Virus genome (UHGV): UHGV-0175639
Direction: 5' to 3' (one strand)
DNA from: a virus
Length of the DNA stretch: 64,000 nucleotides
The translations under genes were made by a program, and so were the position numbers. This document shows positions 24,574-51,852 of the stretch, in pieces. Under the pieces are notes generated by a model. The model was not told the DNA's origin, did no database searches, and saw nothing but the letters and a program-made list of their open reading frames with translations. Each line of letters starts with the position of its first letter. The stretch's first letter is position 1.

Positions 24574-25143
24574 TCAAATGAGAGACTTAAGAACATCGCG
24601 CACCTGGCGGAACTGATCTGTTTGCATACCGGTATGGATGGCAGCCACCGCATCAGCCAAATGTTCGTTTTTGTTCACGAGAACATCCTGTCCAGATTGC
24701 TTACGACGCAGCCACGGTGCTTTAGGGTGTTTTTTCGTAGCCCACTGGATAATCTCTTCTTTCGATGTAGTAAGTTTATTGCCGACAAAATGCTTGATTT
24801 CGTTTGGAGTAACCTGGATCAATGGCTTATCCACACACGCAAGTACACCGATACAAATACCGTAAGACGTCTGCGAACGAGAGTTTTGGCTCCCAACCGG
24901 TAGCTCACAAAAAACCATATTTGCCTTATCAATGATTGGCTTCGCAACACGCCATATTTCACTGGCTCGGCGCAGATCGTCACTGTTCACACGAACGGTC
25001 TTTTTGTTACTCCCCGCTTTAGTCTCAACAAGAGTAAGGCCGTGAATCTCAAGTTCGTCCGTCTCAAGGTCTAAAGTGCCCACAGCAAGCCCAAAGTTGC
25101 TCATTGAGGGATCAACACCAACTACGCTGATTTTTTTACTCAT
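24574..25143 (-). CDS. RuvC-like Holliday junction resolvase (putative)
   Basis: VVGVDPS...NFGLAV at N-terminus and EHLADAVAAIH near C-terminus resemble the RuvC fold. Confidence 0.5.
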   Translation of the reverse strand: MSKKISVVGVDPSMSNFGLAVGTLDLETDELEIHGLTLVETKAGSNKKTVRVNSDDLRRASEIWRVAKPIIDKANMVFCELPVGSQNSRSQTSYGICIGVLACVDKPLIQVTPNEIKHFVGNKLTTSKEEIIQWATKKHPKAPWLRRKQSGQDVLVNKNEHLADAVAAIHTGMQTDQFRQVRDVLKSLI

Positions 25144-25152
25144 ATAGTCTCC

Positions 25153-25896
25153 TTACCATGTTCCCCATATAGGGTTTTCCAATAATCTCGCCTCCAACGA
25201 ATTGGCTACTATTGCCGTTTGCAACGTTGGTTGGGGATAGTTTGCAAAGTCTGAATACTCATTTTCCTGCGTGACACGTTTATCTGCGGCATGTTTAACA
25301 CCACTTGCTATGAAATGACGCATGATGCCCAACAGCCTCCGACTGTCTGCACTATCGTTTGCTAAAACATGAGGGAGCTGAAGTTCGATTTCTACCATTT
25401 CTCCATACTTACCAACAAACTGTAGTTTGTCCGCACTGTACTTTTTATCCCTCCTTTGGATAAGGAAACCAGTAAAAGCATCACCTGGCGATGCCAAACT
25501 ATCCACCCGCTTATTGGCAAGTCGAATAAGGTTCGTGAAAGCCATACAGTGATGCGCACCCATTCCCCCAAAGAACCCTTCGCTATTAATGTTAAGATCT
25601 TCAGTTTCATGGGATGCAATAAACCCAGGCCCGACGTTGGGAAGATATCCCCCCTCAACAAAAGGATTAATCAGGATCGGCGCAATACATCCAGGTGGTA
25701 GTGATTTCAAACTTTGCATCAATGGCGTCTCGGATATTAGACCAAGCAACGCGGCGAATTGTACTCCGTCAATATTGTTGCTGCCCCACAGAATACGTGG
25801 AGCCGCACCATTGGAAGTATGCCCATTGATCAGTTTTATCGACTGCATCACTGCAAATACCTGCAAAAACTGCGAGCGACTTAATTTAAACGACAT
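25153..25896 (-). CDS. hypothetical protein, 247 aa
   Basis: ORF only. Confidence 0.5.
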   Translation of the reverse strand: MSFKLSRSQFLQVFAVMQSIKLINGHTSNGAAPRILWGSNNIDGVQFAALLGLISETPLMQSLKSLPPGCIAPILINPFVEGGYLPNVGPGFIASHETEDLNINSEGFFGGMGAHHCMAFTNLIRLANKRVDSLASPGDAFTGFLIQRRDKKYSADKLQFVGKYGEMVEIELQLPHVLANDSADSRRLLGIMRHFIASGVKHAADKRVTQENEYSDFANYPQPTLQTAIVANSLEARLLENPIWGTW

Positions 25897-27802
25897 AGCT
25901 GCGCCCCTCTTTAACTTCCAGCGTAATAGTTTCCCGGAACCATGACTTCATCTCTTTATGGGAGATAATCAGCACAGTACCTCGCTCGCGAGCTTTGGAC
26001 TCCAGAATACCCATGAGGCGTTCAAGACCGGCTGTATCGAGTGCATCGTCAATTTCGTCGCCGATAAACAAATCGATGTTTTTACTCGCCCGGTTGCTAA
26101 CCAGATCCTGCAATGCCAAAGAACACGCAATGCGAACCTTCCGCTTCTCACCACCAGAGAGGGTCTGGAACGACTTACTTGAACCTTTCTTCTGCACACT
26201 AATGTTGAATTTGTCGCGATACTCACCTTTTTTAGTGACATCCATCGTCGACCACTCAGCAGTAATATTCCCGTCAGACAACGTATTGAGATACTCGGCA
26301 GTGCGTGTATTCAGGAAAGGCGTAACAGACGTCAAAATATGAGAACGCACCCCGGCAGGAGAGTAGACCTGACGAGCTTTTTCCAATAGCAACGTTTGTT
26401 CCTGAATAGCCTTCAACTCATCTTTTAAGGACTTGAAGGTAGACTTACTGGATACCAGGTTATCTTCGTGTCTGGCGATAAGAGCAATAAACGGATTAAT
26501 CTCTTTTGATATACGATCGACCTCAGTACGAGCACGAGTCACAAGAGACTCAATAGCAACAACCTCCTTCTCACGATGACGCAAAGATGAGAGTTGTTTC
26601 GTAAGCTCTTCAATCCGGGCAATGATAGCCGTTACATCAGGTGTCGTTTTAACAAGGGCAGACTCAATGCTTAACGCTTTCTCAAGATTCGTTTTGTGTT
26701 TAGCCATTGCCTCTGCAAGTGTCTTCGCCTGACCAATTTCCTGACGTGCTTGTTCAATGAAATTCTCCTTCACCGTTGATAGATCTTCTTCGCAGTAGGC
26801 TTTGCCACAAGTAGGGCATGGTGATCCCACTTTAGTACCAACCTCTTCTGCTTTGGTCTTAAAATTACGCGCGCGGTTCATTGCATCAGCCTGACTATTT
26901 TCTGTAGCTTTGATGCTTGCCCGAATATCAGTTATCGCACCACGAACTTTGAGCAACTTGGCGTCATGTTCTTCTTTTGAGGCTAACTTTTTGCGCTCAC
27001 TTTCGATTGCCTTCTCGGTATCACGGATCTGTTCGGGAAGAGTGCGGATCTCAAGTTCAACTTCCGTTAACTCAACTTCGGCACTGGCCAGCCCAGCCAG
27101 GGCATCGTCATAACGTTTAGAACGCTCTTGCTCCCATGATTCAGAGGAGGCTTTCGCTGACTCAATTTCTGACTGTGTTGCCTCAATGGTCGAGATTGTC
27201 GACTCCAATTTGGTTTTAACCACATCCATACGTGCGGCAGCTGCATTAGCTCGCTCACGAGCAATAGCGTAGGCGCGTGTCAGTCTGTCAACGCCAGCGG
27301 CTTCTTCTACGATGGTTTTGAGGTTTTTGTCGGACATTCCAGGTAAATCTGGCATAGCTTCTTGGCTCGCATAGATGGAAGCCATGAAAACCTCTTTAGA
27401 TGCACCGATCAGACGCTCGACGAACTCTTGCGTCAGCGCATCTTTGCCTTTCGTCATATCGCCGTCTTCACCACGAACGATAAGCCGATTTTTGAACTCT
27501 TTGTGTTTACGGTGACGAATGATCGCATATCTCTTGCCTTCATCCTCGATGGTTACTGCAACACGACAGTTCTTTTCATGGTCGGTAGACAACACATCGT
27601 CACCCTTCACACCATGAGCTGTTTCGCCATAAAGACACCACATCAGGCTATTCATTAGCGTTGACTTTCCAGAGCCATTACTTGATGCGGAACTATCATC
27701 ACTATTAACACCCTGAATGAGCACTAAACCACGCTGATCTAACTCGACCTCCGCGCTGGCGATAGCCATAAAATTCTCAACCTGGAGCTTTAAAAACTTC
27801 AT
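25886..27802 (-). CDS. SbcC/Rad50-like recombination ATPase
   Basis: Walker A GSGKST, long coiled coil with CPTCGK zinc hook, LSGGE signature, Walker B DEIDD. Confidence 0.85.
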   Translation of the reverse strand: MKFLKLQVENFMAIASAEVELDQRGLVLIQGVNSDDSSASSNGSGKSTLMNSLMWCLYGETAHGVKGDDVLSTDHEKNCRVAVTIEDEGKRYAIIRHRKHKEFKNRLIVRGEDGDMTKGKDALTQEFVERLIGASKEVFMASIYASQEAMPDLPGMSDKNLKTIVEEAAGVDRLTRAYAIARERANAAAARMDVVKTKLESTISTIEATQSEIESAKASSESWEQERSKRYDDALAGLASAEVELTEVELEIRTLPEQIRDTEKAIESERKKLASKEEHDAKLLKVRGAITDIRASIKATENSQADAMNRARNFKTKAEEVGTKVGSPCPTCGKAYCEEDLSTVKENFIEQARQEIGQAKTLAEAMAKHKTNLEKALSIESALVKTTPDVTAIIARIEELTKQLSSLRHREKEVVAIESLVTRARTEVDRISKEINPFIALIARHEDNLVSSKSTFKSLKDELKAIQEQTLLLEKARQVYSPAGVRSHILTSVTPFLNTRTAEYLNTLSDGNITAEWSTMDVTKKGEYRDKFNISVQKKGSSKSFQTLSGGEKRKVRIACSLALQDLVSNRASKNIDLFIGDEIDDALDTAGLERLMGILESKARERGTVLIISHKEMKSWFRETITLEVKEGRSYVV

Positions 27803-46730: not shown

Positions 46731-46980
46731 TCAATCAATCCATTCTAACTTATACTATGGTAAGGAATACTACTAAAATTTATATCAATACTGAATACAT
46801 TCATATCATATGCAAGTTAATTTTCTTACCTGTTTTGGGCTAATTTTTCTCCGTGCAATGGCCTTTAACCGGTCTTTTAAGTGCCTATCGAAAAAATGAT
46901 AATAGCTTTACAACCCTAACCTTTGATGTAATATCGGTAAGCACTTACCAGAGAGAATTGAACGCGCAAAGGTTGTAACA

Positions 46981-49095: not shown

Positions 49096-50358
49096 ATGCC
49101 TTTTTTAATTTTCATTATTATACTACTGCTCACCGTTATTTTTTGGGATTGGGTTGTTTTAAATGGTCAAACTGTTGGAACATTGGCTACAGCATTTGCT
49201 TTTATAGCAACAGCATGGAATGCCTACGAAGCGAGAAAAAGTGCAAAAGCAGCTTTTTCAGCCCTTCAATTAACAACTGAATCATTGTTCGAAATGCGAA
49301 AGAGTGCATTTAAACAATGGTTTGATTCCTTATTAAATCAACATGATGCGTTATGTCTTCTTGCAAAACAAATTATCGATAAACACAAAATTAATTTAAA
49401 CAGCGATGAGTTACATAGACTCTATTACCCATTGGTAAAACAGCATGAGGTAATACAGTATGTGAAGCATATTATTAATATATTTGAGTATGTGGATAGT
49501 TCATTTTATATTGATGGGGAATGTCTCAAGGAAAAAAGAGCGTATGTATCACAATTAATTTTTAAAATCCCACCTCAGATGAAGTTGATCATTGCTATCT
49601 TTGGATTAAAAATCGATTATTGTGAACATATTAATTCGGAAAAACTGTGTTGTTTATTGAATAAATATGATTTTTTCAATGATGAAATATTTTTTGATGA
49701 TGCTTATTCAAATATGCCTTATCTGGATACATTCATAAACCTTAGATTCAATAAAATATTCAAATCTCGAATGATAAATTATTTTGATAATATCATTAAA
49801 AGTTATTATGTTCCATCGGACGTTAAAAGGGACTGGATGTTTCGACGCCCACAGCTCGTACCGTCGGTTCTTATGAATTATAAAACTCCTTGTTCTCCTA
49901 TAATTAATGATTACTTTGAGAAGTTGCCTTTACATGTAAGAAACTACTTTGAGGAACAACTTAAAACCGCGAATGATAGAGTTACTCATTTTGACGTTTA
50001 CATCCCACGCCTTATTGGTTGTTCAATCGTGCAACATTACGAAGATGTGCCTTCCGAAAAAAACAGGTTAAATGACAGGAATGATGTAATAGCTATGGCT
50101 GAAGATTACATCGAGAAAAGAAAATCTAATCAACTAGATTACATACTTGAAGATATATACTTCAAGAGTGACGAAGATATAATCCCAGGCCACCATTTGA
50201 TTGTGGCATTTGATGACTATGAATTTAAATTATCACTCATTAAGATAAATGAGAATAAAGATAGCGATAATCTTTTAAATCGAATTTATACTGAATCCAG
50301 TAGCATGGTTAAAGAATATAAGCGCGAAATATTAAAACTGGGCGACTATGTAAAGTAA
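49096..50358 (+). CDS. membrane-anchored protein, 420 aa, unknown function
   Basis: Two N-terminal TM helices then a long soluble domain; conspicuously AT-rich by eye; own terminator. Confidence 0.6.
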   Translation: MPFLIFIIILLLTVIFWDWVVLNGQTVGTLATAFAFIATAWNAYEARKSAKAAFSALQLTTESLFEMRKSAFKQWFDSLLNQHDALCLLAKQIIDKHKINLNSDELHRLYYPLVKQHEVIQYVKHIINIFEYVDSSFYIDGECLKEKRAYVSQLIFKIPPQMKLIIAIFGLKIDYCEHINSEKLCCLLNKYDFFNDEIFFDDAYSNMPYLDTFINLRFNKIFKSRMINYFDNIIKSYYVPSDVKRDWMFRRPQLVPSVLMNYKTPCSPIINDYFEKLPLHVRNYFEEQLKTANDRVTHFDVYIPRLIGCSIVQHYEDVPSEKNRLNDRNDVIAMAEDYIEKRKSNQLDYILEDIYFKSDEDIIPGHHLIVAFDDYEFKLSLIKINENKDSDNLLNRIYTESSSMVKEYKREILKLGDYVK

Positions 50359-50376: not shown

Positions 50377-50397
50377 AAAGGGGCCGAAGCCCCTTTG
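50377..50397. terminator. hairpin AAAGGGGC-CGAA-GCCCCTTTG with flanking A and T runs
   Basis: Textbook intrinsic terminator, usable in both directions. Confidence 0.65.
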
Positions 50398-50470
50398 AAT
50401 TTTGCGCTGAAAAAAGTGTTGCTAAGATGTTAGCAAGCTATGGTTAAGAACGTCTGCCGTAATTATCTAT

Positions 50471-50548
50471 CACAGCGTTGAGCGGTCTGGTTTATGTTAG
50501 CGGAGTCTTAATCGAGTTGATTAAAAGGCCAAACCGCTCAACGCTGTG
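50471..50548. other. long inverted repeat (about 20-bp stem CACAGCGTTGAGCGGTCTGG, 38-nt loop) abutting the tRNA-Ser 3' end
   Basis: Arms at 50471-50490 and 50529-50548; related stem at 51341-51464 on the other side of the tRNA cluster. Confidence 0.45.
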
Positions 50549-50549
50549 T

Positions 50550-50636
50550 CTGGCGGAGAGTAATGGAATCGAACCATCATCGTTTGCACAATGGAACGGT
50601 TTTCAAGACCGCTTGAGCACCATGCTCCCTACTCTC
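50550..50636 (-). tRNA. tRNA-Ser (anticodon UGA), long variable arm, CCA encoded
   Basis: Manual fold: acceptor GGAGAGU/ACUCUCC, anticodon loop CUUGAAA, T-loop GGTTCGATTCC. Confidence 0.65.
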
Positions 50637-50827
50637 CAGCTATTGTGATGGTCGGTACTGAACTCCGACACAGGGTTGTAGCAAGCCCCGCAAAGCGCGC
50701 ACTACTGTAGTTGCGGCACATCAGCCTGTGCATTCATCACAACGGTAAGAGCACTGGTCTGACTCTATCGATTTACGGCCTTGTGGGTCAGTATCGCCGA
50801 TTCGCCCAATGCTCTTACCTGTTGTGT

Positions 50828-50903
50828 TGGTGCCGGTTAACGGACTTGAACCGCTGGCCATTCGCTTACAAAGCGACTGCTCTACCAACTGAGCTAAACC
50901 GGC
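50828..50903 (-). tRNA. tRNA-Thr (anticodon UGU), CCA encoded
   Basis: Manual fold: acceptor GCCGGUU/AACCGGC, D-arm AGCTCAGTTGGTAGAGC, anticodon loop UUUGUAA. Confidence 0.6.
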
Positions 50904-50907
50904 AATT

Positions 50908-50994
50908 TGGTGGGGAGTGATGGAGTCGAACCACCCGAGTCGCCATGACAGTAGATTTACAGTCTACACCGCTACCTCTACGGACTAACTCCCC
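50908..50994 (-). tRNA. tRNA-Tyr (anticodon GUA), long variable arm, CCA encoded
   Basis: Manual fold: acceptor GGGGAGU/ACUCCCC, anticodon stem-loop GUAGA-CUGUAAA-UCUAC. Confidence 0.6.
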
Positions 50995-50999
50995 TAAAT

Positions 51000-51074
51000 T
51001 GGCGATGGTGGGTGGATTCGAACCACCGACCAGTTGGTTAACAGCCAACTGCTCTACCGCTGAGCTACACCATC
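51000..51074 (-). tRNA. tRNA-Asn (anticodon GUU), CCA encoded
   Basis: Manual fold: acceptor GAUGGUG/CACCAUC, anticodon stem-loop GUUGG-CUGUUAA-CCAAC, T-loop GGTTCGAATCC. Confidence 0.65.
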
Positions 51075-51852
51075 AATTCAGCACTGCCAGTATTTATTAC
51101 TCAACAGTGCCAATCGCGACGGTTTAGTTTCTGCCAGGAAACGCACCGCTACTTGCACTTTTCGTTAGTGCCAGACGCTTTCGACTTCGCTCAATAGTAG
51201 AAGGCAAAATCTTTAAGTAGATGATGTTTCTGAGGACAGCACCTACTTTGTAATTTATACTATGTGATGTATGGAATCATTTGTTGTGAAAACAGGCACC
51301 AATGGCAACAGTGGTTAAACCTACACAACAATCCCGTCTTCACAACGTTGAGGCCACTACTCCGATTGAATGTTTGCCCAACATGTTACATATCAACGTT
51401 CGCCGGTATCTCTGTGAATAGAACCTTAGAATTGATAAAAATGTAATGGCCTCAACGTTGTGTGCTGGCTAACCATACCAGCCGGGCTACGTCGCCGCTT
51501 TTTAACCCAGTATAAACGACATAATTGAACAAAATGACGTAACAGGATGGGCGGTCAGTGGCTAAGAATCCGGGAGTCATATGGAGTTGAAAATATACCA
51601 ACCGCCCATTCTGTTACTTCATCGGAGGGAACATGAATGTTCCCTCCTGCGTTCTGCAATCACACTCGCTCAGTGTGTCCCATTTCGGTAACGAGGCTGG
51701 AAACTGACCTCGCTGGTGTTTGGCTTATTAGGCTACTGCCAGATAGACTTCTTCGTTTGCACTTGTATTTAAGTTCAAACAGTCGCGTCTCAACGAAAAC
51801 AAAGTCATCTTATACACAAAAGATAAGTAAGTAAATACTTATCAATATGTTT

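Follow-up and report, generated by a model that had tools for sequence, protein, structure and literature searches.

Several described RNAs come close to the locus reported here, a minus-strand cluster of four tRNAs and three further families of structured RNA at 50377-51835 of the virus genome UHGV-0175639 (the window, a stretch of 64,000 nucleotides). Transfer-messenger RNA (tmRNA; Rfam RF00023, RF04321 and RF01850) has a reading frame without a start codon that begins at GCA after an A-rich stretch, a tag of the type AN(D/E)xx(Y/F)LA(V/A)A closed by one or two stops in a stem-loop, and H-type pseudoknots directly after it, three of them in a molecule of about 360 nt which also carries an acceptor stem with a G3·U70 pair, a T arm and CCA. 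In the dicF system of E. coli a hairpin precedes a small RNA (sRNA), and RNase III is needed for the 5' end of a 190-nt DicF species (PMC10448788; also Faubladier 1990, as cited). The textbook RNase III stems of T7 early mRNA and of the rRNA operons are double-stranded over about two turns and lie between units, those of T7 with internal loops and no common basal sequence and those of rRNA made from distant flanks. Among tRNA-like noncoding RNAs, YrlA, the RNase P-processed C4 RNA of P1 and engineered tRNA scaffolds contain a coaxial stack of the acceptor/T-arm type. The small stable RNAs of the T4 tRNA cluster (species 1/2, rnaC/rnaD) are structured non-tRNA RNAs co-transcribed and co-processed with phage tRNAs; T4 was not among our matches.

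We identify the window as an SSU5-like phage-plasmid. Over the 1.6 kb surrounding the locus it is 94-98% identical to Escherichia phages CMS-2020a and Cyrano, more distant matches were obtained to Salmonella phage SSU5 and Klebsiella phage-plasmids, and an E. coli plasmid of 114 kb (NZ_AP027904.1) is 100% identical across the gap between tRNA-Ser and tRNA-Thr. ARAGORN and Rfam agree on the four tRNAs (Asn, Tyr, Thr and Ser), all on the minus strand, which an earlier note on this DNA, made from the letters alone, had folded by hand. We read 50377-51835 as a minus-strand operon of stable RNAs in which the hairpins of one family, here called module A, probably act as punctuation cut by RNase III, a reading that we favour with some reserve. 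Each of its parts belongs to or resembles a known kind (processing hairpin, tRNA-like scaffold, tmRNA-like coding region) and each is an undescribed family or variant. The most surprising of them is a tag without a tRNA domain that is conserved in hundreds of phages. The spacers of phage tRNA clusters are usually annotated as junk or as dubious small open reading frames (ORFs); here they are conserved structured RNAs, of three families which occur in temperate and virulent enterobacterial phages and are missing from Rfam and from GenBank/RefSeq annotation. The locus is real and is more interesting than the earlier note judged it to be. Coordinates of all features are presented in Table 1.

Table 1. 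Features of the RNA operon, in the order of their window coordinates.
Feature	Position	Strand	Detail
Intrinsic terminator ending the RNA operon	50377-50396	minus	8-bp stem with 5 G-C pairs (AAAGGGGCTTCGGCCCCTTT), then TTTGTT
Module A copy 3, CACAGCGUUGAGCGGUUUGG...CCAGACCGCUCAACGCUGUG	50471-50548	minus	arms 50471-50490/50529-50548; R1 36.0 bits
tRNA-Ser (UGA), CCA encoded	50551-50637	minus	ARAGORN and Rfam
Module B1	50642-50743 (102 nt)	minus	R2 69.3 bits (E 1e-14)
Module A copy 2, CACAAC-A-GGUAAGAGCAUUGG...CCAGUGCUCUUACC-GUUGUG	50738-50826 (89 nt)	minus	R1 63.2 bits
tRNA-Thr (UGU)	50828-50903	minus	ARAGORN and Rfam
tRNA-Tyr (GUA)	50908-50994	minus	ARAGORN and Rfam
tRNA-Asn (GUU)	51000-51074	minus	ARAGORN and Rfam
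Spacer, module A copy 1 to tRNA-Asn	51075-51340 (265 nt)	minus	about 74% conserved in SSU5
Module A copy 1, CACAACGUUGAGGCCAUUAC...GUAGUGGCCUCAACGUUGUG	51341-51462	minus	arms 51341-51360/51443-51462; R1 43.0 bits
22-bp hairpin, GAAGUAACAGAAUGGGCGGU...ACCGCCCAUCCUGUUACGUC	51534-51622	minus	22-nt arms, 91% complementary
Perfect 11-bp hairpin	51624-51647	minus	arms 51624-51634/51637-51647, 100% complementary
tmRNA-like tag element	51649-51800 (about 150 nt)	minus	near-invariant block; homologues in many phages
Stem H4	51669-51667/51651-51649	minus	tag element
Pseudoknot b	51677-51673/51665-51661	minus	tag element
Pseudoknot a	51702-51698/51682-51678	minus	tag element
Hairpin H2	51712-51708/51696-51692	minus	tag element
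Stem S1	51742-51739/51716-51713	minus	tag element
Tag reading frame	51725-51760	minus	GCA AAC GAA GAA GUC UAU CUG GCA GUA GCC UAA UAA = ANEEVYLAVA, two stops
Putative weak promoter of the tag element	51806-51835	minus	-35 TTTACT 51835-51830, 15-nt spacer, -10 TATAAG 51814-51809

In the mechanism that we propose, transcription would start at the end of the small-ORF/ligase operon or at a weak promoter near 51810-51835 and end at the terminator at 50396-50377, giving in order the tag element, two hairpins, module A copy 1, the 265-nt spacer, tRNA-Asn/Tyr/Thr, module A copy 2 with B1, tRNA-Ser and module A copy 3. Host RNase III would cut the module A stems of about 20 bp and so separate the functional RNAs, the stem remnants would cap the new ends, and RNase P, RNase E and exonucleases would then finish the tRNAs.

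Module A was defined with a covariance model, R1, built from an alignment of 38 non-redundant hairpins of other phages with no window sequence included. In the 64-kb window R1 gave exactly three strong matches, copies 1-3, always better on the minus strand; plus-strand scores were 34.8 bits for copy 1 (minus-strand E 6e-9), 40.5 bits for copy 2 (E 4e-14) and 29.1 bits for copy 3 (E 1e-8, filters off). The earlier note had described the cluster as bracketed by related long inverted repeats with a shared core CGTTGAG; both repeats do carry it and fall into this one covariance-model family, to which, with the same basal sequence, the hairpin in the Ser-Thr gap also belongs, a kinship which that reading overlooked. 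Copies 1 and 3 have 20-nt arms that are 95% complementary (folding z-scores -5.4 and -9.9, with a free energy of -41.2 for copy 3), and copy 2 has a stem of 19-20 bp (z -5.6). The position of copy 1 is also filled in SSU5, Cyrano and the Klebsiella relatives. Across the 38 homologues the 19-pair stem is paired in 95.3% of the alignment cells with double changes in 9/19 pairs; none of 500 shuffles reached the observed values and slid controls were 33-59% paired. Counted on the tRNA strand, G·U pairs number 49 and A·C mismatches 6, which points to an RNA helix and not to a DNA palindrome. The base CACAAC/GUUGUG is near-invariant, an A bulge always lies in the 5' arm (in tRNA direction), and the apex is hypervariable (25-95 nt), often with a T-arm-like hairpin. 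What would be looked for in an RNase III hairpin, a nearly uninterrupted stem of about 20 bp on the transcribed strand, is therefore present, and module A shares with the T7 and rRNA stems their length of about two turns. Unlike them it is a hairpin formed locally on a conserved CACAAC-A-GG base, and its apex is hypervariable.

The family is widespread. Copies found with R1 bracket tRNAs in CMS-2020a, Cyrano, SSU5, two Klebsiella phage-plasmids and P1 (four copies in P1), and the 3'-junction motif CGTTGTGRTGAATGC occurs in at least 120 IMG/VR viral contigs. Rfam 15 at gathering score returned no family for modules A or B in the window or in 17 IMG/VR loci (143 kb). The inverted repeats were rejected as intrinsic terminators: no U tract follows them and the downstream sequences are AUAGAU, AAGACG and AUGAAU. 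Canonical T-arm-like apex hairpins, e.g. GGGUUCGAAUCCC and GCGGUUCGAUUCCGC, were seen in P1 (L007 2250-2265) and in loci L128, L017, L042, L025 and L132, sometimes stacked directly on the module A 3' arm; none of the window copies has one. A weak, AT-rich R1 match in the window at 46759-46831 (minus, 11.9 bits, E 0.46) is probably due to chance.

A further R1 match lies in the E. coli K-12 prophage Qin, between ydfC and dicF (L130 2174-2257, 33 bits, E 1e-6). Counting 190 nt back from the DicF 3' end (L130 2435) leads to approximately 2246, in the 3' arm of the Qin hairpin and 11-12 nt from its base, a position accurate to a few nucleotides as the length of 190 nt was estimated on gels. The sequence stretch of this hairpin is displayed in a supplementary figure on DicF processing (PMC10448788), and in the dicF literature that we found the upstream hairpin is not described as belonging to a family. 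The hairpin upstream of dicF is thus a module A member with an RNase III-dependent end in its 3' arm, placed approximately. By analogy the window copies would be cut as well, although they flank tRNAs whereas the Qin hairpin precedes an sRNA. Such a hairpin family would explain the processing of the operon and would tie in the long-known, unexplained RNase III site of the dicBF transcript.

The second family lies at the 5' end of the predicted transcript. The earlier note took the leader to be structured and devoid of a convincing ORF, and both statements hold (conserved hairpins, covarying pseudoknots; longest ORF in 51075-51850 of 65 aa, none conserved, and relatives with 1-2-nt indels); it overlooked that the leader contains a tmRNA-like tag element. 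The block at approximately 51800-51649 is near-invariant among SSU5-like phage-plasmids while neighbouring ORFs are about 72% identical. It is made up of a conserved 5' part (GUUUUCGUUGAGACGCGAC..), the tag frame, stem S1, hairpin H2, pseudoknots a and b and stem H4. The frame has no start codon; AAAUACAAGU precedes the GCA at 51760, and the equivalent stretch of E. coli tmRNA is AAAAUAGUC GCA AAC GAC GAA AAC UAC GCU UUA GCA GCU UAA UAA (ANDENYALAA, two stops). Among 141 loci with tags of the ANxxx[YF]LAVA-stop type there were 25 nucleotide versions, which translate into 13 peptides in frame versus 21 and 19 in the other frames. Variation falls mostly at third codon positions, the stop is UAA, UAG or UGA, codon 3 is always D/E, codon 4 only N/D/E and never K, and codon 6 only Y/F, with M in P1. 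The +1 frame was rejected as the coding frame as it gives unrelated peptides. A conserved start codon is absent. In SSU5-like phages indels interrupt the frame upstream, and the sequences of the consensus form (e.g. KpV2811) show, on direct reading, an in-frame UAG 8 codons before the resume codon. Judged by this pattern of substitution, the ten-codon frame is under protein-level selection and therefore most likely read by ribosomes without ordinary initiation.

H2 and both pseudoknots are paired in 10-11 of 11 cases with compensatory changes (in the two pseudoknots CCGA/UCGG, CCAA/UUGG and CCAG/CUGG; CGCAC/GUGUG, CGUAC/GUAUG and CGCAU/AUGUG), the window itself having UUCCA/UGGGA and CACAC/GUGUG; the pseudoknots are of the H type and lie 3' of the tag. 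Homologues of the element were found in 405-648 phage records, with carriers among Felixounavirus (inside the tRNA cluster), Ackermannviridae (CBA120, SKML-39), P1, Klebsiella and Aeromonas siphoviruses and Erwinia and Hafnia phages. The annotation under it, among the matches listed, consisted only of hypothetical proteins and an occasional neighbouring tRNA. In KpV2811, pIS4-A, Carvaje, P1 and several IMG/VR contigs the tag is followed directly by module A, which in several of them also precedes it. Of 25 loci with distinct tags, 17 have tRNAs within -1.5/+2.5 kb, always on the strand of the tag and never on the opposite one. The tag frame of P1 reads ANDDLMMVAA and is situated just past its annotated 'dicF-like region'.

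Comparison with tmRNA gave a divided result. In the window element an A-rich stretch leads to the alanine codon at which a start-less frame resumes; this frame ends in ...(L/V)A(A/V)A and two stops set in a stem-loop, and pseudoknots adjoin the coding region, two of them after the tag where tmRNA has three, in about 150 nt as opposed to about 360 nt. The tmRNA models (tmRNA_permuted, tmRNA, beta_tmRNA) are the only Rfam families that repeatedly touch it, with sub-threshold scores of 11-25 bits in the window and six other phage loci. Several findings speak against placing it with tmRNA. No tRNA-like domain (acceptor stem with G3·U70, T arm, CCA) was found; 5' of GUUUUCG no strand is conserved across 10 phages, and when KpV2811, pIS4-A and L043 were searched with regular expressions for T loops and complementary acceptor strands, nothing usable emerged. 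Curated thresholds were not reached (tmRNA_permuted 22.7 bits vs 47, beta_tmRNA 17.3 vs 84), and ARAGORN with default settings called no tmRNA at the element. Only at -ps80/-ps85 did ARAGORN call permuted tmRNAs, with exactly these tags, and these were assembled from neighbouring tRNA or T-arm pieces. As the defining features are missing, the tag element is not a tmRNA; it is a tmRNA-like coding domain with pseudoknots and without the tRNA-like half, which, unlike tmRNA, is located within tRNA operons of phages, with module A hairpins at its flanks. Its sequence seems best explained if it descends from the tmRNA coding region or mimics it. That a host ssrA was captured recently was rejected, BLAST giving matches of 8-12 nt only and no wider likeness to E. 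coli ssrA.

The strongest of the alternatives is that the element forms the coding part of a functional two-piece tmRNA, whose tRNA-like partner (B1, a module A apical T arm, a phage tRNA precursor or host tmRNA) would contribute the alanine-charged domain and allow a phage-run trans-translation that adds ...YLAVA. The start-less, protein-constrained frame and the pseudoknots placed after the tag as in tmRNA would both suit it, and of the Rfam models tmRNA_permuted fits best, along its full length. Module A loops often contain canonical T arms, and B1 has a 7-bp stem on a 5-bp hairpin, followed in many copies by ACCA (CACCACA-ACCA in L038 and L039). 'tmRNA (ssrA)' was also reported with ARAGORN in the genome announcements of Felix O1 and Moogle (PMC4319497, PMC4392139), the only literature that we found on the modules, the tag sequence or phage tmRNA-like elements. 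Against it, no partner is conserved, and the KpV2811 element has no tRNA gene, T-loop motif or CCA-ended complementary acceptor strand nearby. B1 has U3-A70 in place of G3·U70 and a varying CCA spacing, and in the window it lies about 900 nt downstream of the tag, past three tRNAs; the relaxed ARAGORN calls borrow parts of unrelated neighbouring tRNAs. We can offer a two-piece tmRNA as a tentative possibility only.

Slightly more doubtful still is a broader proposal, that hundreds of enterobacterial phages (P1, Felix O1-like, CBA120-like, SSU5-like and several siphoviruses) carry a tmRNA-derived tag which is decoded despite having no tRNA-like domain, and that modules A and B serve as a display scaffold. 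If the first part were true, there would be an undescribed route by which a ribosome starts at an internal alanine codon, via a separate RNA partner, host tmRNA-SmpB or pseudoknot-driven entry, and proteins chosen by the phage would receive ...YLAVA; if the second were true, the variable cargo (T arms, a 16S rRNA helix-11 mimic) would be decoys for host factors or defence nucleases. Some phages are known to depend on trans-translation. The element, a compact and widespread relative of tmRNA without the part thought indispensable for tmRNA function, bears on this dependence, on ribosome rescue in infection and on tmRNA evolution.

Less probable than either is that the element is a non-translated mimic titrating a host factor (S1, RNase R, the SmpB tail, Hfq), or a decaying ssrA remnant. 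The absence of a tRNA-like domain would suit this, as would the fact that the likeness to tmRNA is closest around the resume codon and tag. A pure mimic would not, however, show third-position variation with D/E, N/D/E and Y/F limits and varying stops, and a remnant would not stay near-invariant in 400-650 records of unrelated families with covarying pseudoknots; wider similarity to E. coli ssrA is also missing.

The third family, module B, occupies the second half of the Ser-Thr gap (50638-50827, 190 nt). ARAGORN found no tRNA in this gap and Rfam no family at gathering score or E<=5. The earlier note, which saw room there for two more tRNAs and only a 9-bp-stem element that is not a canonical tRNA, was right about the absence of tRNAs and too modest about the content, an 89-nt hairpin (module A copy 2) and a 102-nt structured element (B1). 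The tRNA and covariance-model scan and the structure prediction which it had proposed as checks yielded neither tRNAs in the gap nor simple terminators in the repeats. B1 directly follows module A copy 2 and reads GUGAUGAAUGC-ACAGGCUGAUGU-GC, a variable centre, and GUCGG-AGUUCAGUA-CCGAC-CAUCACAAU. It folds with a 9-bp closing stem (GUUGUGAUG/CAUCACAAU), a 5-bp 5' hairpin (GCACA-GGCUGA-UGUGC) and a 5-bp 3' hairpin, the GUCGG/CCGAC pairing, stacked directly on the closing stem. R2, a covariance model of module B made without window or P1 sequences, gave a single match in the window, at 50743-50642, and none on the plus strand. Comparison of 27 diverse copies showed conserved ends with 94.9% pairing, a hypervariable centre (about 10-130 nt) and a total module length of 66-185 nt. 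P1 carries, past trnA-trnT and beneath the doubtful antisense ORFs plp and upl, a segment with 94.8% identity to B1; shorter pieces of B1 match the lambdoid phage HK629 and the siphovirus IME207, and R2 also matches the K-12 dicF-dicB spacer with 31 bits.

B1 resembles YrlA, C4 RNA and engineered tRNA scaffolds in its acceptor/T-arm-type coaxial stack; a D-like hairpin is present and the variable insert takes the position of the anticodon arm. It differs from YrlA, tRNA and C4 in having no Rfam match and a T-like loop of 9 nt. We have to admit that a tRNA-like scaffold is called into question by its thin covariation (double changes in 4 pairs and 6 cells only), by the failure of tRNA and tmRNA models to recognise it, and by a U3-A70 pair in place of G3·U70 and a lack of alanine identity. 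The loops GCUGA/UCAGC could kiss (92-98% pairable), without covariation. The 5' strand of B1 overlaps the 3' arm of module A copy 2 by 6 nt (GUUGUG), so that this arm doubles as one strand of the B1 closing stem. The two folds would compete until module A is cut, and cutting should then let B1 fold completely, releasing a tRNA-shaped scaffold which bears a phage-specific variable insert. A conserved scaffold with a variable insert, which in one case is a 16S rRNA helix-11 mimic, would be a possible RNA-decoy strategy.

Other members of module B were noted in known genomes. In P1 (L007, NC_005856 69.47-70.04 kb) plp ('putative lipoprotein') and upl are antisense to three A and three B copies; both are non-essential by a CRISPR interference screen and may be mis-annotations of an RNA region. 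The Qin dicF-dicB spacer (NC_000913 1649454-1649581), where nothing is annotated, contains a module B2-type element closed by a 13-bp stem that starts approximately 15 nt past the DicF terminator. In some phages the B1 centre is the helix-11 mimic (CUUAUCAGCUAGAUGGUGAGGUAAUGGCUCACCAUGGCGACGACGGG; L103 4600-4646, also L114, L128 and L129), which Rfam small-subunit rRNA models match locally (33.4 bits, E 9e-8); this suggests that the scaffold can carry pieces of cellular RNAs.

Returning to module A, it is improbable to our mind that the hairpins are passive stabilisers, insulators or Rho-blocking structures, i.e. exonuclease caps which RNase III leaves uncut in this phage. Two copies start 1-2 nt past tRNA CCA ends (copy 2 1 nt past that of tRNA-Thr, copy 3 2 nt past that of tRNA-Ser), the stems are very stable, and about 1.4 kb of untranslated RNA would, from what is established about Rho, otherwise be open to it. 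Perfect stems of 19-22 bp are, on the other hand, of the length of classical E. coli RNase III substrates, the Qin member sits at an RNase III-dependent 5' end, and simple stabilisers would need no conserved basal sequence or bulge. No sequence requirement of RNase III is known, so the near-invariant base and A bulge suggest an additional sequence-specific partner or homogenisation by recombination; this counts against cutting as their whole explanation, as does the fact that the link to RNase III comes from one family member placed by a gel-estimated length. For the window copies we infer punctuation by RNase III on balance.

What lies between the hairpins varies among close relatives. Against 190 nt in the window, the Ser-Thr gap measures 8 nt in Cyrano and, in the two CMS-2020a genomes, 224 nt and 490 nt, the longer one holding two A and two B modules; Cyrano is without tRNA-Tyr and SSU5 has only tRNA-Asn. 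The units between hairpins thus behave like cassettes that can be exchanged. Modules A and B are met again between tRNAs and ahead of DicF-like sRNAs, and it seems that tRNAs, DicF-like sRNAs and tag elements can replace one another as cargo between punctuation modules of the same kinds. This mosaicism speaks for a reading in which the hairpins act in DNA, as terminal inverted repeats of small mobile or recombining cassettes, resembling miniature inverted-repeat transposable elements or attC sites, by which tRNA and other RNA genes would be shuffled from phage to phage, with the RNA hairpin a by-product. The window B1 is 95% identical to that of P1 in an otherwise unrelated genome, the terminal CACAAC...GTTGTG is near-invariant, and the inner core GTTGAGC/GCTCAAC fits GTTRRRY/RYYYAAC by reading. 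We give this little credence in view of the strand asymmetry. Symmetry would be expected of a DNA palindrome; here the number of G·U pairs exceeds that of A·C mismatches (49 against 6), the models score higher on the tRNA strand, and without exception the A bulge sits in the arm that is 5' in tRNA direction. In addition the attC-like cores are wrongly ordered and not terminal, no integrase or transposase is adjacent, and the K-12 member coincides with an RNA processing site. An integron attC site in the strict sense was rejected likewise, with ends (ACACAAC/GTTGTGA) that mismatch the consensus, exact cores that are internal and in reverse order, a strand bias indicative of RNA, and no integrase nearby. 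Recombination between conserved module sequences may still cause mosaicism without being their function.

DicF-like sRNAs (..UUGGCGGUACCAGCUUGUACCCUUGCUUCCGG..) were seen directly after module B in many prophage-like IMG/VR contigs (L010, L020, L103 4721-4770), matching Rfam DicF with 19 bits. In the Felix O1 tRNA cluster (L140) HNH homing endonuclease genes lie at 25030-26395 and 27313-27726, one of them right after the tag element, and in HK629 an HNH gene lies just upstream of the A and B modules. The HNH genes may be linked to the mosaicism.

Two hairpins separate the tag element from module A copy 1. The arms of the longer one (51534-51622) are conserved and its loop is variable, with a joint z-score of -6.9 with the hairpin at 51624-51647. 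It aligns under module A of KpV2811, pIS4-A and P1 and R1 gives it 10 bits only; it looks like a divergent module A which, in the window and in SSU5, fills the slot of the one that trails the tag element in other phages. A T-loop-like UUCAACUCC in its loop was rejected as part of a tRNA-like domain, not being conserved in relatives. The shorter hairpin was correctly seen in the earlier note as a perfect hairpin at 51625-51647 (we find 11-nt arms), and its further claim that this hairpin buries a GGAGG-ATG start did not survive. SSU5 and Klebsiella relatives keep the hairpin through compensatory changes (AUAGGGCAUG..CAUGCCCUAU; UAGGGCAUCUGG..CCAGUGCCCUUA) and lose both GGAGG and ATG. The minus-strand 26-aa and plus-strand 65-aa ORFs of the leader were discarded, being disrupted by indels in relatives. 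With the hairpin kept while the start is lost and the ORF broken, we take it from the alignment to be a structural element of the minus-strand RNA. That the leader encodes a small plus-strand protein with a masked start, as the GGAGG, the ATG within the hairpin and the 65-aa ORF behind them might suggest, can be dismissed as extremely improbable, given also that the plus-strand ORF (51637-51834) is broken by 1-2-nt indels and that all conserved features are on the minus strand. Within the spacer a weaker hairpin of the CACAAC/GUUGUG type was found at 51283-51346 (GUUGUGAAGACGGG../..CCUGUUUUCACAAC, z -2.4).

The outer limits of the operon agree with a single unit on one strand. The only terminator-like site within the stretch is 50396-50377 (minus), just past the end of a convergent plus-strand ORF (49096-50358); the sole other match of the terminator scan, at 52118-52105, is upstream and inside a 96-aa ORF. 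The putative promoter at 51806-51835 was proposed from its sequence and from alignment of the leader with relatives, and it is a point against it that a consensus sigma-70 scan requiring a 16-18-nt spacer found no promoter on the minus strand. Searches of neighbouring proteins against PHROGs turned up no RNA-processing partner; apart from a DNA ligase and a thioredoxin-fold protein, all families matched were of unknown function. In KpV2811 and pIS4-A, TTGACA-17-TAGATT, a clean promoter in KpV2811, is found at the place equivalent to the putative promoter of the window. The same near-consensus promoter TTGACA-17-TAGATT was observed immediately upstream of the tag element or of A+B in unrelated siphoviruses (L133 1408-1436; L134; L009 1765-1795).

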